The position numbers and the translations under genes are program-made. This document shows positions 165-60,600 of a stretch of DNA of 64,000 nt, in pieces. Within the stretch, counting starts at the first letter, position 1. Each line of letters begins with the position of its first letter. The notes under the pieces are model-generated. The model did not search any database. It saw nothing but the letters and a program-made list of their open reading frames with translations, and was not told where the DNA came from. This stretch comes from an uncultured bacterium (GTDB lineage Bacteria > Acidobacteriota > Aminicenantia > UBA2199): positions 14,183-78,182 of the forward strand of contig CBFDCR010000014.1 of NCBI GenBank assembly GCA_965603365.1, in the 5' to 3' direction.

Positions 165-326
165 AACTTACTTTCCTCCTCTCAAATCATCCAAAAATTT
201 CCAACAAATTAACCATTCTCTTCACCGCTTAAATTAATTATATCAATTAACTTTTTCAAGTGGATATTATAAAGAAAATATTTAAATATTTCAAGTCAAT
301 AGAGGCAAAAAAATATTTTTGTTACA

Positions 327-920
327 CTACTTGTTGAGTTTGAGTTTGCCGATGACTTTGACCAGTTCTTCGTGGAGGATGTGGGAGAGTTCCATGGGTA
401 CCAGGTGGGTCTTTTTGTCTTTTAAGGCCTTCTTGCGGTTGAAGGTATGGGAGAGGATGAGTCGATTGGACTCGAATTCCCGGATCTCGATCTCCATGGC
501 CAGCCTGGCATACCACACCCTGATGGCATCCACCTCCTCCAGGGTCAGCACCCTTGCCTGCATGGTCCACTGGGGCGTGCCTTCGGAAAACTGGCGGATC
601 ACCCGCTTAAATACATTATTCTTATTCAGGAACTCCACCACCGTATCCCGGATCAACTCGCCCGGCTTCTTGATCCAGAAACTGTAAGAGTAGTAGTTCA
701 ACTCAAAGGGAGATTCCCGGTACACCAGCCGGTAGTCGTCGTAGATCCGTTCCACCTTCACCCGTTTGACCAACAACACCCGGTCAATCGGTGTTAGCCC
801 CTTACTCTCCCCCACCGGCAGCTTTAGTTGAAAATAACGCTTGTAAGGGGAGGTCATGCAGCCCCCCAAAAAGATGGCGATTAAAACAAGACAACAAGAG
901 TATCGGGAAAAACGTTTCAT
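327..920 (-). CDS. ABC-transport auxiliary lipoprotein (PqiC/YmbA-like)
   Basis: 197 aa with lipoprotein signal ...LIAIFLGGC. ATGA start/stop overlap with the upstream MCE gene. Last gene of the Mla-like operon. Confidence 0.7.
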   Translation of the reverse strand: MKRFSRYSCCLVLIAIFLGGCMTSPYKRYFQLKLPVGESKGLTPIDRVLLVKRVKVERIYDDYRLVYRESPFELNYYSYSFWIKKPGELIRDTVVEFLNKNNVFKRVIRQFSEGTPQWTMQARVLTLEEVDAIRVWYARLAMEIEIREFESNRLILSHTFNRKKALKDKKTHLVPMELSHILHEELVKVIGKLKLNK

Positions 921-1852
921 TTTTTTCTCCTCTTTTCTTTCCGGGTACGAATAAGGATGGTGGGGTCCTCGCTTAAATTCCGGGAAAACCGGGCCAGATT
1001 CTCCAGTGATTCCCGCAGGCCCACCAGGGTCTTGTTGAGTTCATCCTTTACATCCAGGAAGGTGCCTTCTATTTTGCGAATGCTGGTGGTGGAGGTCTGG
1101 AAAAAGGCATCCACATCTTTTAGAGTCTTACCCAACTCCTCATCGGAAAAACGGGCCGACAGGTTATCGACCAATTTTTCCGTCTTTTCTACGATCCTAA
1201 CGATGTCCAGCCGACTCAGACTGTCGGAAAGGCGGTTGACCTTTTGGGAAAACTTCTCTATATTTTCCAGGGAACGGGCCATTGACATTCGCTGCTCCTG
1301 GATAAAGGATTTCAGCACAGCCGTACTCTCTTCAATATTTCCCAGGATGCGGGAGATCTCCTCTTCCCGGTCCTCACCGAGCAATTTATTGATATTCTTC
1401 ACCGCCTTATCGATATTGGAAACGATGTCTTCGGCCTTTTCCCCCAGACCCCTCTTCATGGGAATCACGCCCCCGGGTTCGAGGTTTTCCGAGGCCGATT
1501 TACCGCCGGATAATTCCACGAACTTGAGCCCGGTAATACCGGCATACGACAATTGGGCCCGCATGTCTGTCTTAACGGGAAAGCCCTTATTGATCCTCAC
1601 CTCCACCAGGATGGAGCTCAAATCCTTCGAGTTGACCTCGATTTCCCGTACCTTGCCGATATCCACCCCCTGGTACTTCACATTGGAGCCTTCATTCAGC
1701 CCATATACGGAAATGCCTTTAAAGCTAATGAAATACTTATTGCCCTCTTCTTTCAACTTGGGCAGGATAAAGATGCCCAAAATCACGATTAGCAGGACAA
1801 TGGATACCACCAAAAAAATACCCAGCCTCTGTTTTTGTTCTCTGGTTAACAT
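917..1852 (-). CDS. MlaD/MCE-family substrate-binding protein
   Basis: 311 aa. N-terminal TM helix, then MCE motifs (GLNEGSNVKYQGVDIGKV...YAGITGLKFVELSGG) and a long helical C-terminus. Overlaps the ATPase gene by 7 nt. Confidence 0.85.
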   Translation of the reverse strand: MLTREQKQRLGIFLVVSIVLLIVILGIFILPKLKEEGNKYFISFKGISVYGLNEGSNVKYQGVDIGKVREIEVNSKDLSSILVEVRINKGFPVKTDMRAQLSYAGITGLKFVELSGGKSASENLEPGGVIPMKRGLGEKAEDIVSNIDKAVKNINKLLGEDREEEISRILGNIEESTAVLKSFIQEQRMSMARSLENIEKFSQKVNRLSDSLSRLDIVRIVEKTEKLVDNLSARFSDEELGKTLKDVDAFFQTSTTSIRKIEGTFLDVKDELNKTLVGLRESLENLARFSRNLSEDPTILIRTRKEKRRKK

Positions 1853-2598
1853 TTTTCCTCATTCCTCATAAAAAAAGTGTCGATAAAAGAATCATTGGCG
1901 GAGAAAAGCTCGGTTAAAGTCCCATTAAAATACATGCTGCCGGCCTTCAACACAATGGCCCGGTCGGCAATCTTTTCAATCGACCGCAGTTCATGGGTGA
2001 CCACCACAAAGGTAATCCCAAACACCTGCCGCAGGTGCAGCATCAATTCATCCAGTTCGGCAGCGGTGATGGGGTCGAGTCCGGAGGATGGCTCATCGCA
2101 AAAAATAATTTCCGGGTCCAGGATCATGGCCCGGGCCAACGCGCCCCTCTTGCGCATGCCGCCGGAGAGCTCGGCGGGAAACTTGTGGCTGTTCTCGGCC
2201 AACCCCACCCCCGCCAGCCTCGAATGCACCATCTCCTGCTCAATCTCCCGGGGCAATTCCGGGTACTGCATGTTGAGGGGCAGGGCCACGTTATCATACA
2301 GGCTCAATGAATTAAGCAAGGCGCCGCCCTGGTATAATACCCCGATCCTTTCATACACATGGTGTACGGCATGTTCGGATAAGAAATCCAATTGCCGACC
2401 CCAAAAATAGACATGACCCTGCAGCGGCGGAATCAAGCCGATCAGGGTCTTTAAAACAGTAGATTTGCCGGAACCGCTTTTACCCAGTATGACACAGATT
2501 TCCCCCCTGTTGATGGTAAAACTCAAATCCCGCAGCACCGCGCTCCGCTCATAGCCCACATCCAGCCTGTCGGTTCTAATGATCTCTGCCCCTTCCAT
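1846..2598 (-). CDS. ABC transporter ATP-binding protein (MlaF-like)
   Basis: Walker A GKSGSGKST, signature LSGGMRKR, Walker B IIFCDEPSSGLD. I prefer the ATG at 2598 (MEGAEIIR...). The ORF-track start at 2637 would overlap the permease gene by 28 nt. Confidence 0.85.
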   Translation of the reverse strand: MEGAEIIRTDRLDVGYERSAVLRDLSFTINRGEICVILGKSGSGKSTVLKTLIGLIPPLQGHVYFWGRQLDFLSEHAVHHVYERIGVLYQGGALLNSLSLYDNVALPLNMQYPELPREIEQEMVHSRLAGVGLAENSHKFPAELSGGMRKRGALARAMILDPEIIFCDEPSSGLDPITAAELDELMLHLRQVFGITFVVVTHELRSIEKIADRAIVLKAGSMYFNGTLTELFSANDSFIDTFFMRNEEKC

Positions 2599-2609
2599 GT
2601 TCTTCACAT

Positions 2610-3680
2610 TTAGTATAAAAGTATGGCAAAGATGCAATCCAGCACGATAATAAGGGATATGGAGAGTACTACCGAGCGGGTGGTGGCCACCCCCACCTCC
2701 CGGGCACCCCTTTCCACGGAAAAGCCCTTGTAACCGGCACTCACCACCACCACCCAGCCAAAGGCGATGGTCTTGCCCAGCCCGATCAACACATCCCCCA
2801 GACCGACGATCAAGAACATCTCATCTAAAAAAACCCTGGGCACTATACCCAGGAAAAAGCGGGCCACCAGCATGCCGCCGAATATACCCACAAAATCGGC
2901 CAATGCCACCAGCAGGGGAATGGCCAACGTGATGGCTATTAACCGGGGCACCATTAAAAACTGTTCCGGCTGAAGGCCCATGGTCTTCAGGGCATCCACC
3001 TCCTCCATGACCTTCATGGAAGAGATCTCGGCGGTAATGGCGGCCCCGATTTTTCCCGCCAGGATTATGCCGGTCATCAGGGGCACCAGTTCCCGGATCA
3101 TGCCGAAGCCCACCAGATCGGCGATGTAGATGTCGGCGCCAAAAAGTTTCAACTGCTGGGCCGAGGTCACGGAGATGGTCACCCCCACCAGGAAGGAGAT
3201 GAAGCAGACAATGGGAGCCGAATCATAGGCCATAAAATAGAGTTGATGCAGGATCTCGCCGGGATAGACGCCCCGCCTCCTCACCAGGTATTGAAAGGTG
3301 TAATAAATTTCATCGGTCAGCAGTGACAGGTATATCCTGGCCCTGTTTTTGAATTTCCAGAAGCGGTCCCCCAATTTTTCGATCCGTTCGGCCACAACGG
3401 TTACGGGTTCCTCTTTTTGGGGTCGAACCTTTTCCTCTGAAAGATACTTTTCAAAAATCCGGCTGAACTCCGGCCTGACATTCTCAAAGGCGACATTTTT
3501 AAAGTGTTTTTTCACATAATTTAAAAAGGCGATTCCGGCGGAATCAAACTTCTCCACCTCGCCAAAATCCATCACCAATGCAGTCGATTTATCTCTGCTC
3601 TTGAGATCTTTAAATAACACCGCTGCATTGCCGATGACGAGTTCTACAGGCAGAAGAAGTTTTTCACCTTTTTTTTCCAT
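2610..3680 (-). CDS. MlaE-family ABC permease with N-terminal STAS-like domain
   Basis: About 100-aa STAS-like N-terminus (FDSAGIAFLNYV) fused to a multi-TM MlaE-type permease (MIRELVPLMTGIILAGKIGAAITAEISSMKVMEEVDAL). The track start at 3692 is TTG; the ATG at 3680 has GAAGG upstream. Confidence 0.85.
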   Translation of the reverse strand: MEKKGEKLLLPVELVIGNAAVLFKDLKSRDKSTALVMDFGEVEKFDSAGIAFLNYVKKHFKNVAFENVRPEFSRIFEKYLSEEKVRPQKEEPVTVVAERIEKLGDRFWKFKNRARIYLSLLTDEIYYTFQYLVRRRGVYPGEILHQLYFMAYDSAPIVCFISFLVGVTISVTSAQQLKLFGADIYIADLVGFGMIRELVPLMTGIILAGKIGAAITAEISSMKVMEEVDALKTMGLQPEQFLMVPRLIAITLAIPLLVALADFVGIFGGMLVARFFLGIVPRVFLDEMFLIVGLGDVLIGLGKTIAFGWVVVVSAGYKGFSVERGAREVGVATTRSVVLSISLIIVLDCIFAILLY

Positions 3681-3731
3681 AATAACCTTCAAGCCCCTAT
3701 TTTAATACAAATCGCCCCATCTATTCAAGGC

Positions 3732-3788
3732 AAATTGCAGAATAACCATTTGGTTGTTGGCTGTTGGTTGTTGGTTATTTTGCAATTT
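3732..3788 (-). other. long stem-loop (17-bp arms, one mismatch) just downstream of the peptide-precursor gene
   Basis: AAATTGCAGAATAACCA (3732-3748) pairs with TGGTTATTTTGCAATTT (3772-3788). The loop is a TGGTTG-type microrepeat. No U-run follows, so it is not a canonical intrinsic terminator. Confidence 0.55.
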
Positions 3789-3821
3789 GCAATGGACAGA
3801 CGAAAGGAAACAGGCAAAAAA

Positions 3822-4001
3822 TCAGGGACAGGCGTATATTCCCGTGATGCAAAAGTTTGTGCACCAGTTTGTGCAATACGGAGGAAGTATCGTTATATGG
3901 TCGTGCTCTCCTCCTTTAACGTCCTTCATCTGGGATTCGTCCAAATTGGCTACAGTTGCTTTGTTTAATGAAAGTTTCCTTGAAACTTCTCTTGTTTTCA
4001 T
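3822..4001 (-). CDS. GG-leader peptide precursor (RiPP/bacteriocin-like), 59 aa with a Cys/Thr-rich 28-aa core
   Basis: The leader MKTREVSRKLSLNKATVANLDESQMKDVKGG has the (K)LSLNKxTxxNL...VKGG pattern of GG-motif natural-product precursors. The core is EHDHITILPPYCTNWCTNFCITGIYACP. AAGGAGG lies 7 nt before the ATG at 4001, and the gene has its own promoter. Confidence 0.75.
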   Translation of the reverse strand: MKTREVSRKLSLNKATVANLDESQMKDVKGGEHDHITILPPYCTNWCTNFCITGIYACP

Positions 4002-4037
4002 TTCATTTCCTCCTTTAATTATTTTCATTTAGCCAAC

Positions 4038-4066
4038 ATTCTATCATGCCGATATAGCCTTGTCAA
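4038..4066 (-). promoter_or_regulatory. sigma70-type promoter of the peptide precursor
   Basis: On the minus strand: TTGACA (4061-4066), 17-nt spacer, TAGAAT (4038-4043). It lies about 35 nt upstream of the ATG. Confidence 0.7.
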
Positions 4067-4264
4067 AATAAAGAACACAGGAGATTTTCTTTAGTCCCGG
4101 AGATGAAAAACAGGACAGGGGGATGAGCCAGTCCGGCACCAATAGATGCCCCTGTAAACGAAAATTCTCCTGTTCCCTACCCCCATCTATTTTTTACATC
4201 CCTCCATTATTCCACCTTCCCATTATTCCATCTCGAAAGCAAAGGGAACGGAGTAAAAAAGGTC

Positions 4265-4369
4265 GATATCGGAGCTCGAAGCTGTGATATCGGAGCTCGA
4301 GGCTGTGATATCGGAGCAAAAAGGGTCGCGATCGGAGCTCGAGGCATCGATATAAGAGCTCGAAGGGTC
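4265..4369. repeat. five tandem copies of a ~21-bp unit (GATATCGGAGCTCGARGCTGT)
   Basis: Units at 4265-4285, 4286-4306, 4307-4329, 4330-4348 and 4349-4369. Each carries GAGCTC, and most carry GATATC. The total length is 105 bp, i.e. 5 x 21. Confidence 0.9.
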
Positions 4370-4384
4370 AAAATCGCAATGATT

Positions 4385-4412
4385 GTAGGGGGCGCAGATC
4401 TGCGCCCCCTAC
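4385..4412 (-). terminator. GC-rich perfect hairpin downstream of the MauE-like gene
   Basis: GTAGGGGGCGCAG-AT-CTGCGCCCCCTAC is a perfect 28-nt palindrome lying 20 nt after the stop at 4432. The tail is only moderately U-rich on the minus strand. Confidence 0.6.
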
Positions 4413-4431
4413 CCACCGTGCCCTCCCCCAT

Positions 4432-4899
4432 TTATTGAGAGACCGAGGGATGGGGGGTGCTGGGTTTGTGGAAGAAGATGATGATCAGGCCGGGGAGGAG
4501 CATGAGGAGGTCGCGGAAGGCATCCACGATGAAGTTGCCTTCCCCCGCTTCACTGGAGGTGGTAAAGCAGCCGCAGTTGAAATTGAAACCCCGGATGGCA
4601 TTAACGACAAGGGTAATCATGAATACTGCCAGTAGAGAGGAGAGAAGAATCGCGGCGGTGCGGGGAAAAATGCCGATGACCAGGAAAATCCCGGTGACCA
4701 TCTCCAGCCAGGGCAGTGCCACCGCCATAAAATGGATGAATAGATCCGGTACCAGGCGGTACTGGTAAATAATATCGGCAAAGGCCTGGGGGTGGGCGAT
4801 CTTGTCCAGGCTGGCGTAGATAAAGAGGCCCCCCAGGATCAACCGGCAGAGGACCTGAACGGGACGGGAACTTAAGAAGCGGGCGATCCCGGTTTTCAT
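4432..4899 (-). CDS. MauE/DoxX-family redox-associated membrane protein
   Basis: Four or five TM helices and the NCGCF motif typical of MauE. I take the start at MKTGIARFL (4899), 1 nt after the rhodanese stop. The longer track ORF (to 5055) overlaps the rhodanese gene. Confidence 0.75.
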   Translation of the reverse strand: MKTGIARFLSSRPVQVLCRLILGGLFIYASLDKIAHPQAFADIIYQYRLVPDLFIHFMAVALPWLEMVTGIFLVIGIFPRTAAILLSSLLAVFMITLVVNAIRGFNFNCGCFTTSSEAGEGNFIVDAFRDLLMLLPGLIIIFFHKPSTPHPSVSQ

Positions 4900-32346: not shown

Positions 32347-34695
32347 ATGGATAGAGATGTTAGCCGTCTGAGTATCGGAAGGCCGGTGATACTCCTGGTA
32401 ATAGCAATTATCGGTATTACCCTCATGCCGGGGGACATCGTTGCCAGAGTGGTAAAGGTAGACATCGCCAGTCGGGAAGTGGTATCACCCTCCCTTGAGC
32501 ACAGCCGCTCCGGTCCATACGAAGTCCTCAAGGGCATCATTTACCTGGAGGTCGATCCATTGGACCCGGCCAACGGAAAGATCGCCGACTTAAAATTGGC
32601 CAAACGGAATGATCGCGGCCGGGTGGCGTTCTCCAGCGAATTCGAATTGCACAAGCCGGTGGAGGCGAAACTGGGCAATCGTCGGCTGATATACTTTGTC
32701 AACAACCGCGGCAATAAAATAGGAACATGGCACTTCAATCACCAGGCCGACAAAAATTGGCTCTACAGCCGGGGTTATTCATATTTATGGTGCGGCTGGA
32801 ATGCCGACGTGATAGAGAGCGACCGCAGATTTAATATCGATGTACCCACGGCAGCAGAAGACGGCAAACCAATAACCGGCAAGATCTATGCAGAAATAAT
32901 CTCTTTTGCCGACGATATTACTTATGTGCATCCCATTGTCTGGGGCGGCTCTATCGCCTACCCGCCGGTAAATATGGATAAGTCAGATGCAACATTAACG
33001 ATGCGTCAATATCGCCGTGAGGCGCCGATAGAGATACCCCGTGAAGAGTGGGAGTTTGCCCGTTTGGAAGACGGTAAGATCGTGCCCGATCCGGGCACCA
33101 TTTATATTAAAAAGGGATTCAAGCCCGGTTGGTTATATGATCTCGTTTACGTGGGCAAAAATCCCAGGGTGACCGGCCTGGGACTGGCGGCCATTCGCGA
33201 TGTGGTCTCCTTTTTCAAATATGAAAAAACGGATGAACATCACAACGGCAATCCTCTATATGGTGTCATCGACAATGCCTATGCCTGGGGGCACTCCCAG
33301 TCGGGACGGCTCTTAAATCACTTTGTCTACCAGGATTTCAACGGGGACGAAAAAAAACGAATGGTATTTGACGGCATCATGGCCAACTGTCCCGGAGCCG
33401 GAAAGGGCCTGTTTAATTCCCGCTTTGCCCAGCCCACCCGTCACGGCAGTCACCACGAAGACAACCTCTTCCCGGTCGATTTTTTCCCCTTTACCACAGT
33501 CGAGCAGTACGACCCTATTACGGGAGAACGGGGTGACGGCCTGGCCGCGGCCCGCCGGTCCGGTTTTTTAGCCAAAATGTTTTTTATCAATTCAGCCACG
33601 GATTATTGGACCCGGGCCGCTTCACTGCTTCATACCGATGTCGAGGGGAAGAGGGATGCCGGGATCGACCCCCATGTACGCATTTATGCCATAGCCGGTA
33701 GAGCCCATACCGACTCCCGCATCGGCATTATCGGACGGGCCTTATTGACTGCCCTGGATCAATGGGTGAGTCACGGTGCAGAGCCGCCGAAATCGCAAAT
33801 TCCGAAAATCTCCGACGGCACCCTGGTTACCCTGGAGGCATTCCGCCAGAAGTTTCCCGGTATCCCCGGCGTCCAGATGCCGGACTCTTTTTATCATCCC
33901 TTTCGGCTGGATATGGGGCCTCGCTGGCATACAGCGGGCATAGCCGATCAGGTGCCGCCCAAAACAGGAGCCCGTTACGTGTGTCTGGTTCCCCAGGTCG
34001 ATGAGGACGGAAACGAAACAGCGGGTATTCGTCTGCCTGAAATAGCGGTGCCACTGGCCACCTATACAGGTTGGAGTATGCGTTCGCCGTCTTTCTCCCG
34101 CACCTTGAGGCGCAATGCCGGCCGGGTCTGGCCTTTAGCCGTTACCGTTGAAGAGCGTAAAAAGAGCGGCGATCCCCGGAAAGCCATATTGGAACGGTAT
34201 CCCACCAAAGCGGATTATATCTATCAGGTGACAAAGTCCCTGTTAAGTTTGAAACATCAACGATTCTTACTCGACGACGACGTCGCCATGTTGCTCAAGG
34301 AGGCTGCCGAACAGAACTACTGGCCGATAGATGAGGATGCAGGCCTGGTCTCCATTCAGGCCGCTGCGGCCCAACCCCAGGTGGTAAAACGCGGCCAGTC
34401 GTCCATACTGACAGTCCGCTTTACCGGAAAGCCGGACCACATAATCAGTGTCAAAGCCATTGTCCGGGAAGCTCCCCATGTGCACTATGTGTTCAACGAC
34501 AGTGGCCAAAACAAAGACGAAACCGCCGGAGATAATGTATGGACGAGTAAACTCGACATAGTATCCGATGCTGTCCCCGGAGAGTACCATTTAGATATCC
34601 AGGCCCTCGACATCAATTGGAACCCCATCTACCTCACCGGCACCATCAAAGAGGGCAAAGGCAAAACCCCCTCCCTCCCCATCACCGTAAAGTAA
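32347..34695 (+). CDS. large secreted protein, probable alpha/beta-hydrolase-type with C-terminal Ig-like domain
   Basis: 782 aa. N-terminal anchor/signal, a GxSxG-like elbow (WGHSQSGRLL), and a C-terminal beta-sandwich-like ~120 aa. The family assignment is tentative. Confidence 0.5.
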   Translation: MDRDVSRLSIGRPVILLVIAIIGITLMPGDIVARVVKVDIASREVVSPSLEHSRSGPYEVLKGIIYLEVDPLDPANGKIADLKLAKRNDRGRVAFSSEFELHKPVEAKLGNRRLIYFVNNRGNKIGTWHFNHQADKNWLYSRGYSYLWCGWNADVIESDRRFNIDVPTAAEDGKPITGKIYAEIISFADDITYVHPIVWGGSIAYPPVNMDKSDATLTMRQYRREAPIEIPREEWEFARLEDGKIVPDPGTIYIKKGFKPGWLYDLVYVGKNPRVTGLGLAAIRDVVSFFKYEKTDEHHNGNPLYGVIDNAYAWGHSQSGRLLNHFVYQDFNGDEKKRMVFDGIMANCPGAGKGLFNSRFAQPTRHGSHHEDNLFPVDFFPFTTVEQYDPITGERGDGLAAARRSGFLAKMFFINSATDYWTRAASLLHTDVEGKRDAGIDPHVRIYAIAGRAHTDSRIGIIGRALLTALDQWVSHGAEPPKSQIPKISDGTLVTLEAFRQKFPGIPGVQMPDSFYHPFRLDMGPRWHTAGIADQVPPKTGARYVCLVPQVDEDGNETAGIRLPEIAVPLATYTGWSMRSPSFSRTLRRNAGRVWPLAVTVEERKKSGDPRKAILERYPTKADYIYQVTKSLLSLKHQRFLLDDDVAMLLKEAAEQNYWPIDEDAGLVSIQAAAAQPQVVKRGQSSILTVRFTGKPDHIISVKAIVREAPHVHYVFNDSGQNKDETAGDNVWTSKLDIVSDAVPGEYHLDIQALDINWNPIYLTGTIKEGKGKTPSLPITVK

Positions 34696-34696
34696 A

Positions 34697-34950
34697 GGTG
34701 ATCTTTGGTGTAATTTGGTGCAAATTTGATGCAAATGGGCACATGATTGATACATGGAGTGTGGATGGTGGAGAAATAGGGTGCAATGTTGAGTGAATTG
34801 GGTGCAATTTTGCACCTATTTTGTCCATTGATGGAGCTTTTAGGTGCAATTTTGTGCGAATTTTCTCCGGCATCGGAGAAAATAGGTGCAACTTTGAGCA
34901 AATTTTGTTCGACAAAGGAGAAATCAGGTGCAAACTTGTACTTATGGCGA
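34697..34950. repeat. phased array of GGTGCAA half-sites / degenerate 16-bp palindromes
   Basis: GGTGCAA occurs at 34717, 34780, 34801, 34843, 34885 and 34927, with spacings of 63, 21, 42, 42 and 42 nt. 34801-34816 is the perfect palindrome GGTGCAATTTTGCACC. A GGAGAAA(A)T motif precedes three copies. A 9-bp hairpin lies at 34860-34883. Confidence 0.85.
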
Positions 34951-34964
34951 TAATAGTTAAAAGT

Positions 34965-46331: not shown

Positions 46332-47584
46332 TAAACCTTATCATTATCAGTGCTGTCCTCAAACAGAGATTCAATATTACCGATAAACGGGATGGCTCCG
46401 TATTTTCCCATGATGTAATCTTTATTGAATGAGGCATCCTTGCGGACTTTGTATTCCTCCAGGGAGTAAAGTTCCGACGCCCCATATTCATCTTTCTGGA
46501 TAAACCAGATCTGGTCTCTCCTGAAAAATTGATTGGACAGGATGTTGGTATCATGGCTGACGAATATGAGCTGTGATTTGGGCCTCCAGGCGTTATCTTT
46601 TTTTGGTTTGTAATGATGAAACATCTCGATGAGTGCCCTCGTTAAAAGAGGATGAAATTTCGATGTGAGTTCGTCTATTACCAACACATCGTCATTTTTT
46701 AAAGCTTGATAAATGGGCTGTGAGAGTTCGAAAAGAGCCTGAGTCCCGGCCGATTCGTCTCTAAGAAGGTCGAACTTTTCCTCCGATAACGGGTTGTTAT
46801 GCTGATCGTATATTTGATGTATAACCCTATAACAGGATGACTGGTCATATACCCTGCCATCGTTTCGATCCTTCCAAATATCTTCCTTCTTGATGTTTTT
46901 TAATCCCATATCGGCAACCTTTAAAAGTTTTAGTACAAATTCCTTGAATTCATGATGCTCAAGTTCATAATCACACCAACAATCCGATTCAATATCAATA
47001 ACAATAACAAGATGATCGAACCATTCCAATATCTTTTTGGCGGTCTGACCATTAAATTGATCGACCACAGAAAGGAAAAGGGCGTTTGCCCTTGTCTTGC
47101 TTGCTAATCCTTTTCCTTCTTTAAAACCGGGACCTATCTTAATTTGATCTTTTTCTCTGGTAAAAAGGGTGGCCTCCCTGATGGTGGGAACATAATAGAG
47201 CCATTCATGGTAAACCCGTTCCCTGTCTACCTGGAATCCATATCTATAGCGTATCCCGTCAATTAAAAAAGTAACCTCAAAGGTCGAAGGCACGGTCTTT
47301 GTTTCAGTACTTAATCGAAATTCATCAACCTTTTTTATTTTGTTTGCAGAACTTTCCTTAGAAGAAGTTAATACAAGCTCCTTCATTAATTTAAGGGCTT
47401 TAACCAGGTTCGATTTTCCACTGGCATTGGCCCCATAAAGGGCAGCACTTTTTAGCAGTCTCAGCTTATCGTTCACCCGGATAGTGTTGGTATCACGATG
47501 CTCTCTGTCTGCTGAAGCCACCATGCTCAGGGTAACAATATCCTTGAAGGAGAGGAAATTTCCTACTTTAAATTCTATCAACAT
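46331..47584 (-). CDS. AAA_21/ABC-type ATPase (RloA / OLD-ATPase-like)
   Basis: MLIEFKVGNFLSFKD start, Walker A GANASGKSNL, and C-terminal LVIDELTSKFHP and QLIFVSHDT. The ATG at 47584 follows GAGAGG. AT-rich. Confidence 0.85.
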   Translation of the reverse strand: MLIEFKVGNFLSFKDIVTLSMVASADREHRDTNTIRVNDKLRLLKSAALYGANASGKSNLVKALKLMKELVLTSSKESSANKIKKVDEFRLSTETKTVPSTFEVTFLIDGIRYRYGFQVDRERVYHEWLYYVPTIREATLFTREKDQIKIGPGFKEGKGLASKTRANALFLSVVDQFNGQTAKKILEWFDHLVIVIDIESDCWCDYELEHHEFKEFVLKLLKVADMGLKNIKKEDIWKDRNDGRVYDQSSCYRVIHQIYDQHNNPLSEEKFDLLRDESAGTQALFELSQPIYQALKNDDVLVIDELTSKFHPLLTRALIEMFHHYKPKKDNAWRPKSQLIFVSHDTNILSNQFFRRDQIWFIQKDEYGASELYSLEEYKVRKDASFNKDYIMGKYGAIPFIGNIESLFEDSTDNDKV

Positions 47585-47717
47585 CTTTAGCCTCTCTTTG
47601 TTCTTATAATCTATTATCAAATTAAAGTCAAGTTTTTTGAGAAAATTCCTCAAAAAAGTGTCTTTTGCAACCAAATCCTGCTGGCGAATAGGGCAAAGGA
47701 GTGCGGTTTGTTCTCAT

Positions 47718-48557
47718 TTAAATCGGCATGGGGGGGTGATTTTCGGTATGGCGGTCGATTTTCAGGGAGGGGAGATCTATGGTGACATAGGTGAAATCTC
47801 GCAGTTGGCCCGGCTGGATGGAGAGGGTGTCGCCAATTTTGTTAAACCAACTGCCGGTCATCAGCGGCGACTCGTGGATGTGGCCGTGAAGCGACAGCAG
47901 GGGTTGATGGGTCTCCAGGAACCGATACACGGCTATAGAACCCACCTCCCGGCCGTCGGAGCAGCAATCCAGGCCCACAAAGGCGGGGGGCATGTGCATC
48001 ACATATATACTGCGCCGAAAATCCGTCGGTTTTACCAACTGCCCCAACTCATCCTGGAGTGTGGCTAAGGTCAGGGCATAACTGAACCAATCGTCGATAT
48101 AGGCCAGGCCGTCTTCCGTAGACAATACTCCACGGCCATGCTGCTGGGGAAAGATAAAATCCCGGGTATCCATGCGGCAGCGGTCCTTCAACTGGAAGGG
48201 ATAATCCGCCACCCAGTTCATGCCGATAAATTCGTATCCCCCAATTTCCACCCTCTTCTGGGCCAGGTCTTTAACAAAGGCGTATTTCCCGCAGGTCGCC
48301 TCGTACAACGAATCGAATATCCGCAAGTCGTCGTTGCCCAGGCAGCCCAGGTAATAAATTCCCGCACTCTCTAATTTCTTAAAATAGGGGCCCAGGTATT
48401 CGACGATAAACTGGCTCTGCTTTTTCAACGCGCCGCCAAAGGGCAGGGCATCGCCGCCGTTGATTACGATGTCGGCCGCCATCTCCCGGGCCAGTTCAAA
48501 AAGCCGCTCGTATTTCCACCAACTGCCGTGCAGATCAGTCACATAAATGATTGTCAT
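47718..48557 (-). CDS. calcineurin-like metallophosphoesterase
   Basis: YVTDLHG, GGDA, GNDD, HMPP and GHIHE metal-ligand motifs. 279 aa. Confidence 0.8.
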   Translation of the reverse strand: MTIIYVTDLHGSWWKYERLFELAREMAADIVINGGDALPFGGALKKQSQFIVEYLGPYFKKLESAGIYYLGCLGNDDLRIFDSLYEATCGKYAFVKDLAQKRVEIGGYEFIGMNWVADYPFQLKDRCRMDTRDFIFPQQHGRGVLSTEDGLAYIDDWFSYALTLATLQDELGQLVKPTDFRRSIYVMHMPPAFVGLDCCSDGREVGSIAVYRFLETHQPLLSLHGHIHESPLMTGSWFNKIGDTLSIQPGQLRDFTYVTIDLPSLKIDRHTENHPPMPI

Positions 48558-48688
48558 CGTCCCAAAAAGAGTACCATTCTACACCATCGTACTCCCCAAC
48601 ACAAGAGCAAAACCAACCAGAACGAAACCGGAGAAGCGGGAACAGATCCCGGAATGCTGGATTTGTGGAATTATTTTTCTACAACTTA

Positions 48689-55289: not shown

Positions 55290-55562
55290 GGTCAAATCGG
55301 GTCTAGTGGCGGGCCAGTTGGATGGCTTTGTCGAGGAATTCGTCGCGGCCCTCTTTCACCCCTTTGATGGTTCTGTTGAGGGGGATGTGGGGGATGATGC
55401 CCACGCCGTGAGGTGAGGCTCCAGGGGTTCTAACTTCCAGGAGCGGTTGGCGTATGTGACCTGTTCATAATCGGGATAGGCGATTTTCCACCAACTGCCG
55501 TGCAGATCAGTCACATAAATGATTGTCATCATGCCAAAAAAAACACCATTCTACACTATCTA
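55290..55562 (-). repeat. chimeric duplicate: S41-peptidase 3' fragment fused to the metallophosphoesterase 5' fragment plus its upstream DNA
   Basis: 55290-55410 matches 58304-58425 with about 3 differences. 55411-55488 matches 58634-58707 with about 3 differences; the intervening ~208 nt are missing. 55487-55562 matches 48512-48590, with the first 46 nt identical. Confidence 0.9.
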
Positions 55563-58136: not shown

Positions 58137-58305
58137 TTTATGCCTCCATCAACGTATATTCTTTCCGAAATCATATTATATCAAAGTCTTTCACTTTCTT
58201 CTACTTGAAGAACCATGACTTCAGAAATAAACCTTAAATCAATTCTTTTTTTTCATCCTTCTGGCAATTTTTTTGTCCCTCTTTGGGTATGAAAATGTCA
58301 CATGG

Positions 58306-60600
58306 TCAAATTTGGGTCTGGTGGCGGGCCAGTTGGATGGCTTTGTCGAGGAATTCGTCGCGGCCCTCTTTCACCCCTTTGATGGTTCTGTTGAGGGGGA
58401 TGTGGGGGATGATGCCCACGCCGTGGTGCTGAGAGCCGTCGTGTTTGACCACCCGCATACCGGTAAAGGTGACGCGGTAGCCGCCGGGCAGGCGGATGGC
58501 ATTCACATTGCCGTTGGTACCGGCAGTGGGCTGGCCGATGATGGTGGCCAGTTTGTAGTGTTCGATAAAGCCCATGAAGGATTCGGCATAACTGATGGCC
58601 CGGCCATCCACGATAAAAATCACTTTTGCCGTCAGGTGAGGCTCCAGGGGTGCTAACTTCCAGGAGCGGTTGGTGTATGTGACCTGTTCATAATCGGGAT
58701 AGACGATCTGGGGAATCCGCATCCAGGAGGTGGAGGTGTCCTTCTCCTTGAGCAAATGGCAGATCAAACGGTGATTGCCCATGGGGTAGCCCCTTAAATC
58801 GCAGATGATGCTTTTGGCCTTCTCCAGTTGGGGCATCAGTTTTTCGATCTCCGGCCAGGTGATTTGCCCCAGGTTCAGGTACAGGATGCCTTCCCCTATT
58901 TTTTTATACCTGTCCTCCCGAAAACTGATCTGCCGTTGATACTTCCTGCTGCAAACGATCTCCCGCAGAAGGATTTGATCTCCCCTGAGGATCTTCAAAC
59001 TCTTTTTGGAATTTTCTGTCCCCATCAGCAAATTGCCCAGTGTCCGGTACTGCTTCCAGCCGGGGGTGGCGGCGGAGATGTATTGGCCCTCGTTGGCCAG
59101 CGCATCGCCGGCTTTTAGGCCATCGATTTCCAGGATGATATCACCGGGCCTGATGTCAAGTTTCTGATCCAGCACCCGGGTCACCACCAGTTGCTCTTCC
59201 AGCCACTCCCAGTCGAGGGGCGCATAAAAAAGGCGGGGCGCGCCCTGTAGAGAGACCCGGACATGGCCGTCTTTCAAGGCGGCGGTGAATTTTTGCAGGG
59301 TTTTAAGGAAATCAAATTGATCCTTATCCCGGTAGGCCCATTCAAGGGCCCTGGTTAACTGGGCCGGCCAGTCGGCCTGGACTGCGTCGAAATAGGGAAA
59401 GAAGTGCTGAAAGATATTCCAGCTTATGACAATATCGGCCAGCCGGGTATACAGATCATCACCGGAAAACTCTTTTGAGACTTCCTGCTCAACCGCGGCA
59501 CGCAGCCGGGCCAACGCCTCTCCAGGAGAGGGCGGATAGGTATGCTCCCGGCTGCCGTAGAGGGCCAGGGGCACGATGCACGATAGGCCGCCGCCCAGTT
59601 CCTTGCTCACCGTCTCCCCCACCCGGGGAACCTGTTCAAAAATGGGGTCCCGGTACACCAGGGTTTTGTGTTCGATCAACAGACTCTTATTTCCCTTGGC
59701 CGCCGTCTGGTCTGTGACCTGAAAAGAGTAGACGGCATCGGCAAACATCCACTCCTTGGGCGACCCGCCGGGGCCAGCGACTTCAAAATCGGCATTCGGT
59801 ATTTCCACCGGCTGCCAGGCATCGGCCTCCTTGAGGTAAATTTGAAAATCATCGGCCCAGACCTTGCCCAAACCGACCAGGAAGCAGCCAAAGAAAATAT
59901 CTTCGGCATCATCGGCCACCGTACCGATAATTTCATAGTATTGCCAATCGGATGATCGAATGGGGCGGTCATCCATGTTGTCAAAAAATCCCAACTGTCG
60001 CCCGGGGCGGTCCACCCGCAGCCACAACTGGCTCTGGCCGGCCTTTTTTTGTACCTCCGCTTTGACGGCGGCACGCAATTTGATCTCCTTTCCCCGAAAG
60101 GGGGCGGAGTCAACTTTGCTGCTGATAGCCCCAAAATCATTGGCGGGAACGATCACGTTTTCCCGGTTAACCCGGATACTCTTGTAGATACTCCGGGGCC
60201 TTCCCAGGGCCACGCCCAGGTGCTGCCAGGCCACCTCTTTCATACCTTCCATCTCCGGCGGGGTGATGCTGGCTTTAGAAAACGCCACCGACTCTTCGGA
60301 ATCGTGGATCACCAGCGCAGGGGCAATGGGCATGAACAACCCCTGCAATGCCTGTTTAAGTTCGGCTCTATTTCGGGCCGACTCGACCGTTTTGATCCCG
60401 TAGACGGCAAACTTCTGCCAATCCATCCGGGCCGCCTCATCAGTGGGATGAAAGAAGCGCACATAGCCGTACAACCGGGCAAAGGTTTCGATGTTGGCCG
60501 CCGCCTCTTCATGGGAAGTTTGCCCCGGTAAATAACCGGCGGTACAAATCCCCATCAGAACCAGGATGAATAATACTACTCCGCTAACATTTCGCCTCAT
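58306..60600 (-). CDS. S41-family (tail-specific/tricorn-core-like) peptidase
   Basis: 764 aa. Signal peptide, PDZ-like segment (IRPGDIILEIDGLKAGDA), and S41 core (ICDLRGYPMGN...FIVDGRAISYAESF). Confidence 0.8.
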   Translation of the reverse strand: MRRNVSGVVLFILVLMGICTAGYLPGQTSHEEAAANIETFARLYGYVRFFHPTDEAARMDWQKFAVYGIKTVESARNRAELKQALQGLFMPIAPALVIHDSEESVAFSKASITPPEMEGMKEVAWQHLGVALGRPRSIYKSIRVNRENVIVPANDFGAISSKVDSAPFRGKEIKLRAAVKAEVQKKAGQSQLWLRVDRPGRQLGFFDNMDDRPIRSSDWQYYEIIGTVADDAEDIFFGCFLVGLGKVWADDFQIYLKEADAWQPVEIPNADFEVAGPGGSPKEWMFADAVYSFQVTDQTAAKGNKSLLIEHKTLVYRDPIFEQVPRVGETVSKELGGGLSCIVPLALYGSREHTYPPSPGEALARLRAAVEQEVSKEFSGDDLYTRLADIVISWNIFQHFFPYFDAVQADWPAQLTRALEWAYRDKDQFDFLKTLQKFTAALKDGHVRVSLQGAPRLFYAPLDWEWLEEQLVVTRVLDQKLDIRPGDIILEIDGLKAGDALANEGQYISAATPGWKQYRTLGNLLMGTENSKKSLKILRGDQILLREIVCSRKYQRQISFREDRYKKIGEGILYLNLGQITWPEIEKLMPQLEKAKSIICDLRGYPMGNHRLICHLLKEKDTSTSWMRIPQIVYPDYEQVTYTNRSWKLAPLEPHLTAKVIFIVDGRAISYAESFMGFIEHYKLATIIGQPTAGTNGNVNAIRLPGGYRVTFTGMRVVKHDGSQHHGVGIIPHIPLNRTIKGVKEGRDEFLDKAIQLARHQTQI

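Follow-up and report, generated by a model that had tools for sequence, protein, structure and literature searches.

What kind of element is a spacer in which a single heptamer recurs at exact multiples of 21 bp? The question arises at positions 34697-34950 of the window, by which we mean the whole 64-kb stretch of contig CBFDCR010000014.1 analysed here. There, an array of GGTGCAA motifs fills the 3′-3′ spacer between a hydrolase gene on the plus strand (stop at 34695) and a gene for a Cry-like protein on the minus strand (stop at 34965). The array and the convergence of the two genes had been pointed out in an earlier examination of the letters alone (hereafter, the sequence-only reading), which named iterons, a centromere-like (parC/parS-type) site and a multi-operator array as typical cases of such phasing, with a small structured RNA or a 3′ untranslated region (UTR) element of the Cry-like gene as a fallback. 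We give about even weight to another answer, in which the array is a minisatellite, or variable number tandem repeat (VNTR): a higher-order tandem repeat that is non-coding and restricted to one lineage, and any effect of which would probably be structural.

The motif positions and spacings given by the sequence-only reading are exact. Six GGTGCAA cores lie on the plus strand, at 34717, 34780, 34801, 34843, 34885 and 34927, with core-to-core spacings of 63, 21, 42, 42 and 42 bp, all multiples of 21. Its other details are likewise present: the perfect palindrome GGTGCAATTTTGCACC at 34801-34816, whose other half supplies a seventh GGTGCAA on the minus strand (34810-34816); GGAGAAA(A)T/GGAGAAATC directly 5′ of three cores, at 34770, 34875 and 34917; and GGTG at 34697, 34707 and 34717. 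Over the full 64 kb the heptamer is no commoner than chance would have it (10 matches vs. 7.6 expected from shuffles), while six plus-strand copies within 254 nt correspond to a Poisson P of about 1.7e-14.

The repeating unit is a 42-nt imperfect palindrome, GGAGAAAAT-AGGTGCAA-nn-TTGnGCnAA-TTTTCTCC plus a 6-nt linker, around an inner 21-nt module, TAGGTGCAAnnTTGnGCnAAn, which is at times doubled within one pair of outer arms to give 63-nt units. Five to six in-register copies are present, with repeat families spaced at 21, 42 and 63; all units run head-to-tail, with every core on the plus strand bar the minus-strand half of the palindrome. Tandem Repeats Finder assigns the main array a period of 42 (2.2 copies, 80% matches, 0% indels) and reports 34704-34736 as a separate period-11 repeat. 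Read along the plus strand, the array opens with a leader, or seed, of 10/11-nt direct repeats (34697-34736; GGTGATCTTT, GGTGTAATTT, GGTGCAAATTT and GATGCAAAT), the only part also found in an array-less strain. A degenerate stretch (34737-34769, GGGCACATGATTGATACATGGAGTGTGGATGGT), which contains no intact core and is conserved between the window and the related strain L052, leads into the main array. There follow a 63-nt unit (34770-34832), in which outer arms GGAGAAAT and TTTTGTCC enclose two 21-nt modules and the perfect palindrome; a 42-nt unit (34833-34874, GGAGCTTTTAGGTGCAATTTTGTGCGAATTTTCTCCGGCATC), the top nhmmer match to a unit profile built from these same units (E 2.5e-11); a further 42-nt unit (34875-34916, GGAGAAAATAGGTGCAACTTTGAGCAAATTTTGTTCGACAAA), identical in L052; and a truncated and degenerate last unit (34917-34950, GGAGAAATCAGGTGCAAACTTGTACTTATGGCG). 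The palindromic form of the unit also lets neighbouring copies pair, right arm with left arm, and this is the 9-bp hairpin at 34860-34883 (ATTTTCTCC at 34860-34868, then GGCATC, then GGAGAAAAT at 34875-34883) already noticed from the letters.

A finer hierarchy lies within the unit. Sequence-identity autocorrelation peaks at lags 10/11, 21, 31/32, 42, 63 and 84 in both the window and L052 (0.40-0.57 vs. 0.27 in shuffles) and is also elevated at lags 52/53 nt; the raised identity at 10/11, 31/32 and 52/53 indicates that the 21-nt module is itself composed of two diverged copies of about 10.5 nt. The same-face phasing of dyads described by the sequence-only reading holds at 21/42 bp and extends to the 10/11-bp identity lags and to a 10.5-bp periodicity of AA/TT/AT steps. 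The dyads are mostly degenerate on one half: when the 17-nt arms (GGAGAAAATAGGTGCAA / TTGnGCnAATTTTCTCC) are compared over 10 units of 16 pairs each, 109 of the 160 cells pair (86 Watson-Crick and 23 G-T), the rest being 4 A-C and 47 other combinations.

Comparison with relatives, reached through protein homologues and forming three informative haplotype groups, reveals that the array varies both in copy number and in presence. L052 and L053 share the gene order of the window, with a Cry-like protein 99% identical and nucleotide flanks 97-98% identical, and carry 10 cores (spacings 63, 42, 42, 21, 42, 42, 21, 42 and 42) vs. the six of the window; their spacer measures 490 bp vs. 269 bp in the window. 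Within the array, window and L052 differ by in-register blocks of 84 and 63 nt, and a further 74-nt indel lies directly past the hydrolase stop. L048 and L049 (hydrolase protein 98% identical; nucleotide flank 96.5% in L048 and 98% in L049) have neither the array nor the Cry-like gene. Blastn homology to them ends at 34696 and returns only at 36572-36638, and the breakpoints, gene tables and alignment together delimit a strain-variable segment (34697-36571) that comprises the array, the Cry-like gene and its AT-rich upstream region; array and gene are present or absent together among the strains. L048 carries an ATPase_2 plus MqsA-like gene pair between the hydrolase stop and a retained leader, and L049 shows the start of the same insert. 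The retained sequence of L048, ATCTTTGGTGTAAAGTGGTGCC (...GGCACATCTTTGGTGTAAAGTGGTGCC...), lies just left of the resumed homology and matches the array leader; the L052 leader and L048 9651-9680 are 90% identical over 30 nt. These differences fit a young, single-locus array whose units are still being gained and lost in register between strains. The sequence-only reading had named absence of the array from homologous loci among the findings that would count against it, and such loci do in part lack it.

No further copy of the array was found by self-blastn of the window, and a profile hidden Markov model of the unit (nhmmer), run over the window and seven related loci, matched nothing outside the array at E<0.1. 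A single-unit pattern, GGAGAAANNNGGTGCAANNTTG, returned 47 isolated chance matches and no arrays over 185,579 representative GTDB genomes; a two-core pattern run over metagenomes returned 94 loci, none with GGAGAAA/TTTCTCC arms or blastn similarity to the array; and two viral-contig scans gave nothing relevant. These searches covered the window, the related loci and the genome, metagenome and viral collections; nothing in them points to a dispersed family, though a low-density one may exist in the complete genome of this organism. Within that scope, a dispersed family of repetitive extragenic palindromic (REP) sequences or miniature inverted-repeat transposable elements is rejected. A conserved 3′ appendage of either flanking gene is rejected too: hydrolase homologues at 75% identity have different neighbours and no such array, and at Cry-like loci of 71-81% identity nucleotide homology spans the coding sequence only, with no tandem repeat downstream.

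Similar dyads do occur on three unrelated metagenome contigs, where 4-7 copies of the 16-bp dyad GGTGCAA-N2-TTGCACC, or of AGGTGCAAnnTTGATGC, recur every 21 bp (L107, ~1130-1290; L127, ~3250-3600; L125, ~1230-1328). The arrays of L107 and L127 lie upstream of a ~470-aa gene (a TPR protein in L127), and that of L125 lies 3′ of a terminator hairpin.

We compared the locus with known repeat systems and with the gene content of the window. Among the predicted window open reading frames (ORFs) of at least 80 aa plus a 69-aa ORF (37778-37987), a Pfam scan found no Rep, ParA/ParB/ParM/ParR, integrase, transposase or REP-associated tyrosine transposase (RAYT), and no Y1/IS200-like transposase occurs among the window proteins. 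The REP sequences and bacterial interspersed mosaic elements (BIMEs) of enterobacteria are imperfect palindromes of ~35-40 nt with short linkers, found in tandem clusters of strain-variable size in transcribed 3′ spacers, including convergent ones; their hairpins can protect upstream mRNA, and their DNA binds gyrase and IHF. The array shares the imperfect-palindrome unit, the linkers, the convergent 3′ spacer and the strain-variable size. It differs in occupying one locus, with no other copy in the 64 kb or in any scan, whereas REP/BIME sequences are dispersed in hundreds of copies; in its head-to-tail units, where those of BIMEs alternate in orientation; in the lack of a RAYT gene in the window; and in its unrelated sequence. 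Mycobacterial interspersed repetitive units (MIRUs) and the boxB modules of pneumococcal BOX elements are intergenic head-to-tail repeats of ~40-50 nt that vary between strains by whole units. They share with the array the tandem units, the whole-unit variation and the lack of a dedicated partner gene, and boxB also forms hairpins; however, MIRU and BOX elements each populate at least tens of loci (>100 in the case of BOX), BOX with end modules boxA and boxC, whereas the array is confined to one locus, and A/T tracts are phased within its own 10.5/21-bp hierarchy.

The remaining comparisons concern the systems named by the sequence-only reading. The F-plasmid centromere sopC has twelve repeats of 43 bp, and SopB binds the 16-bp inverted repeat that each contains; R1 parC has 10 repeats of 11 bp. 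The array resembles these centromeres in its 42-bp period with one 16-bp dyad per unit, its 6-10 units, its 11-bp leader sub-repeat and its single helical face. In contrast to them, it has no sopA/sopB, parA/parB or parM/parR in the window, lies in a chromosomal context, has degenerate dyads and is dispensable in a close strain. Iterons such as those of R6K and P1 incA are direct repeats of 17-22 bp at ~22-bp spacing, and the array shares with them direct repeats at 21-bp phasing and, as at P1 incA, a position downstream of a gene. Unlike iterons, it comes with no initiator gene, no DnaA-box cluster (DnaA boxes match no more often than chance predicts, and the matches do not gather around the array) and no identified adjacent unwinding region, and it is not on a plasmid or phage (viral scans were negative). 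No parS consensus was found. As to a multi-operator array, the position is 3′-3′, no promoter-like site was found at 34400-35300, and no regulator is nearby, the nearest helix-turn-helix (HTH) genes lying several kb off within toxin-antitoxin or efflux modules. The array thus shares with iterons, partition centromeres and operator arrays the geometry of its repeats but none of their other defining features, and it is absent or copy-variable in close strains. A VNTR is recognised by head-to-tail copies and by whole-unit differences between strains, and the array has both. We read it as an intergenic palindromic minisatellite.

The array also stands out in composition. Its plus strand is G/T-rich (73 G and 31 C over 254 nt), with a GC skew of +0.40 that falls in the top 0.75% of segments, and the 10.5-bp power of AA/TT/AT steps reaches 8.9, whereas 1265 other segments average 0.62 and none exceeds 5.97; in L052 it is 14.2. 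Because A/T tracts recur every 10.5 bp, strong DNA curvature is predicted: with Bolshoy/Trifonov wedge parameters, the ratio of end-to-end to contour length is 0.35 for the array vs. 0.90 +/- 0.08 for the window background, and 0.12-0.22 in L052, where the predicted curvature is stronger still. A literature search on DNA curvature in convergent intergenic regions gave nothing of direct use. Only one other 254-bp segment of the window is equally curved in the wedge model (ratio 0.34); it lies at approximately 47551-47804 and spans the junction of an AAA_21 and a metallophosphoesterase gene.

How might such an array have arisen, and what might it do? A 10/11-nt seed (TTGGTGYAAAT-like), already present in the ancestral spacer to judge from the leader kept by L048, would have been amplified, presumably by replication slippage or unequal recombination, to the 21-nt module and then to the 42-nt imperfect palindrome, in linkage with the strain-specific and apparently horizontally acquired Cry-like gene. 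Its effect, if any, would probably be structural rather than a matter of sequence-specific recognition by a dedicated partner. In plus-strand RNA, at the 3′ end of the hydrolase transcript, serial G/U-rich hairpins could stop transcription or protect the 3′ end. Minus-strand RNA past the Cry-like stop has 73 C and 31 G over 254 nt, C-rich and G-poor as in Rho-utilization (rut) regions in composition only, and could load Rho at the 3′ end of the Cry-like transcript. Together, hairpins, C-rich tract and predicted curvature would insulate the two convergent transcription units from one another, as REP/BIME sequences are thought to do. A 3′-UTR or structural role of this kind is plausible, and to that extent the fallback of the sequence-only reading stands; as a conserved appendage of the Cry-like gene it does not, since nucleotide homology to Cry-like loci of other species stops at the coding sequence.

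Several observations weigh against this account. We infer the terminator, stabiliser or insulator role purely by analogy and from predicted properties, and the hydrolase gene manages without the array in strain L048. Canonical hairpins followed by a T-run number two in the region vs. 1.1 expected from shuffles; the array itself contains one, on the plus strand (34799-34828; hairpin 34799-34818 followed by TTTTGTCCAT), which is no more than chance. Predicted folding energies differ between the strands (-81.5 kcal/mol, z -4.3, for plus; -48.5 kcal/mol, z -3.6, for minus), but the z-scores are similar, so the gap is largely compositional, and the predicted curvature depends on the wedge parameters used. 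Moreover, the core GGTG-A--TTG is intact in 16 of 16 modules across both strains while other positions vary in ~25% of cells, a count to be read with the caveat that the units are not independent and were located using a motif pattern. A purely structural or neutral model does not predict so invariant a core, which hints at sequence-specific constraint and keeps a protein-binding explanation in play as the chief rival.

On that explanation, which we regard as unlikely, the array would be a phased set of sites for a protein encoded elsewhere (a nucleoid-associated or silencing protein, a regulator, or the partner of an orphan centromere-like site), with dimers occupying each 21-bp module on one helix face and wrapping or bending the DNA. 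The invariant core with its variable flanks suits such a protein, as do cores at exact 21-bp multiples, a register that no indel disturbs in either the 6 or the 10 modules, though in-register phasing also arises automatically from tandem duplication. The 10.5-bp A/T phasing and predicted curvature, extreme for the window, point the same way, as does the resemblance of the 42-bp period and 16-bp dyad to the 43-bp repeats of sopC. In L107, L127 and L125, sites spaced 21 bp apart contain either the 16-bp dyad or the core with TTGATGC; the arrays of L107 and L127, however, were ascertained with a pattern that already contained a partial palindrome. Set against all this are the lack of any Rep, Par or suitably placed DNA-binding gene in the 64 kb, the lack of a promoter-like site, parS or DnaA-box cluster, the mostly one-sided degeneracy of the dyads, and the dispensability of an array that is absent from L048/L049 and free to vary in copy number. 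A stronger form holds that the phasing, the invariant GGTGCAA-N2-TTG core and the curvature have been selected, making the array a protein-wrapping site (centromere-like, chromatin-organising or nucleating xenogeneic silencing) or a landing pad for cargo genes, bound by a putative factor. We consider this a long shot; if it were true, the 16-bp dyad at 21-bp spacing in the three metagenome contigs would point to a widespread, undescribed site-protein pair.

The edge of the array coincides with a strain breakpoint, and this keeps alive a reading in terms of recombination, in which an element carrying the Cry-like gene would have its end, or its site of attachment or landing, in the repeats, or the repeats would be a hotspot for cargo insertion. 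The array starts exactly where homology to L048/L049 breaks off (34696/34697), is co-present or co-absent with the Cry-like gene, is represented in L048 by a leader-like copy at the opposite junction of a different insert (the ATPase_2 and MqsA-like pair), and has the 74-nt indel relative to L052 immediately past the hydrolase stop. We nevertheless judge it improbable: the other end (36435-36571) has no inverted copy of the repeat, there is no clear target-site duplication, the window encodes no transposase, integrase or RAYT, Cry-like genes of other taxa come without such repeats, and by inspection the array resembles neither attC nor an Xer/dif site. A further reading, to our mind very improbable, is that the plus strand is transcribed into an independent small structured RNA or into a specific cis-regulatory RNA element. 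The far better folding of the plus strand would speak for it, were the similar z-scores not tracing the asymmetry to composition. The mismatches within units are mostly G-T on the plus strand (23 vs. 4 A-C), an excess that fits either G-U tolerance in a plus-strand RNA or C-to-T mutation biased to one strand. Units share these G-T pairs through common descent, so that few independent events lie behind them. Rfam 15 gave no match at gathering score (the best was a microRNA family, mir-92, with 16 bits vs. 47 needed, E 1.9), no promoter-like site accompanies the array, strains differ in the number of units, and one close strain lacks the element altogether. A protein-coding repeat, whether it extends the Cry-like ORF by read-through or encodes a small peptide of its own, is effectively refuted. 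The Cry-like frame does stay open past its TAG stop, for ~100 codons in the window and ~150 in L052, but all 5 differences between the two in that frame are non-synonymous, and those Cry-like homologues that were checked share the C-terminal end point. The sequence-only reading had found all three minus-strand frames open and took this as a sign of repeat composition. Only two are open across the array, the third having several stops; the two are open because the unit contains no TTA, CTA or TCA, as is true of ~15% of random 42-mers by our own estimate, and every copy inherits this. The 63- and 84-nt indels preserve frame, and mini-ORFs on the plus strand are not conserved between strains. The array is non-coding.

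If the minisatellite reading holds, the repeat is ordinary, if neatly built, and its chief points of note are the clean 10.5/21/42-bp hierarchy and the predicted curvature. It would illustrate how an 11-nt seed can grow into a helically phased, strongly curved higher-order repeat beside a recently acquired gene, and it could serve as a VNTR strain marker for an uncultivated Aminicenantes population. Should the core and phasing instead reflect a specific binding protein, or the repeat mark an insertion hotspot, the locus would give access to the way chromosomes are organised, or genes captured, in a phylum without genetics.

Other signals were considered by eye and dropped. A sigma-54 promoter at 34738-34754 has the wrong GGGCAC-N4-TTGA spacing and no -12 GC; an Xer/dif-like site, suggested by GGTGC... 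and TTATGG within the final unit, misfits the 11-6-11 arm and spacer lengths; an integron attC has no RYYYAAC/GTTRRRY pair; and a LacI-type operator has a half-site spacing 2 bp too short. Shine-Dalgarno-like GGAG/AGGTG motifs precede GTG mini-ORFs, whose peptides are not conserved between strains.

The hydrolase (32347-34695, plus strand) is a 782-aa alpha/beta-hydrolase of the Abhydrolase_10 family (Pfam PF20091, E 2e-32) whose stop codon lies 1 nt 5′ of the array; its closest named homologue belongs to Candidatus Aminicenantales, placing the organism in Candidatus Aminicenantes. The Cry-like gene (34965-36434, minus strand) encodes a 489-aa protein with an Endotoxin_N domain (Pfam PF03945, E 2e-31) and has homologues at 61-67% protein identity in Methanosarcina sp. 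T3, several Paenibacillus species and Tahibacter. Homologues across these taxa, together with strain-variable presence, indicate wide horizontal transfer of the gene, also from one domain to another. L179-L184 carry a split, pseudogenised copy. PADLOC and NCBIfam gave no defence link for the Cry-like protein, the hydrolase or the 348-aa protein encoded beyond the variable segment.

The right edge of that segment is a 67-bp block (36572-36638, plus strand) conserved with L048 9694-9759 even though the genes on both sides differ there. It contains 11-nt direct repeats (GTTACCGTTT/GTTTACGATTT) with a TTGACG hexamer just 3′ of them, upstream of the 348-aa gene, and 36566-36638 may be a candidate response-regulator-type promoter module for that gene. 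On the minus strand of L048 9765-9810, a likeness to the 3′ half of a tRNA gene (TGGCGCGATTCGAACGCGCGGCC...) adjoins an IS66 fragment; ARAGORN calls no tRNA there, and the sequence is probably an integration-site remnant.

The wider context is chromosomal housekeeping (mla, a resistance-nodulation-division efflux pump, pheST, signal peptidase, lpxA, msrAB, lspA, lgt and a pseudouridine synthase), interspersed with many toxin-antitoxin and defence modules. Less than 3 kb from the array, a small ORF and PIN-domain toxin pair (37778-38402) is a strain-specific insertion, missing in L052, where a 339-aa gene is followed directly by an S15 peptidase gene. L048 has a gene of 1392 aa (BcrAD_BadFG/DUF2229; 323-4501) between msrAB and lpxA, where the window has a gap of ~300 bp, and this extra gene marks the neighbourhood as highly plastic. 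Finally, the intergenic stretch between an SNF2-helicase and a PIN gene (55290-55560) is pieced together from three fragments that recur elsewhere in the window at 92-97.5% identity (also at 48513-48588, 58304-58425 and 58628-58707), which look like scars from the insertion of a defence island comprising a type IIG restriction-modification enzyme and a helicase.

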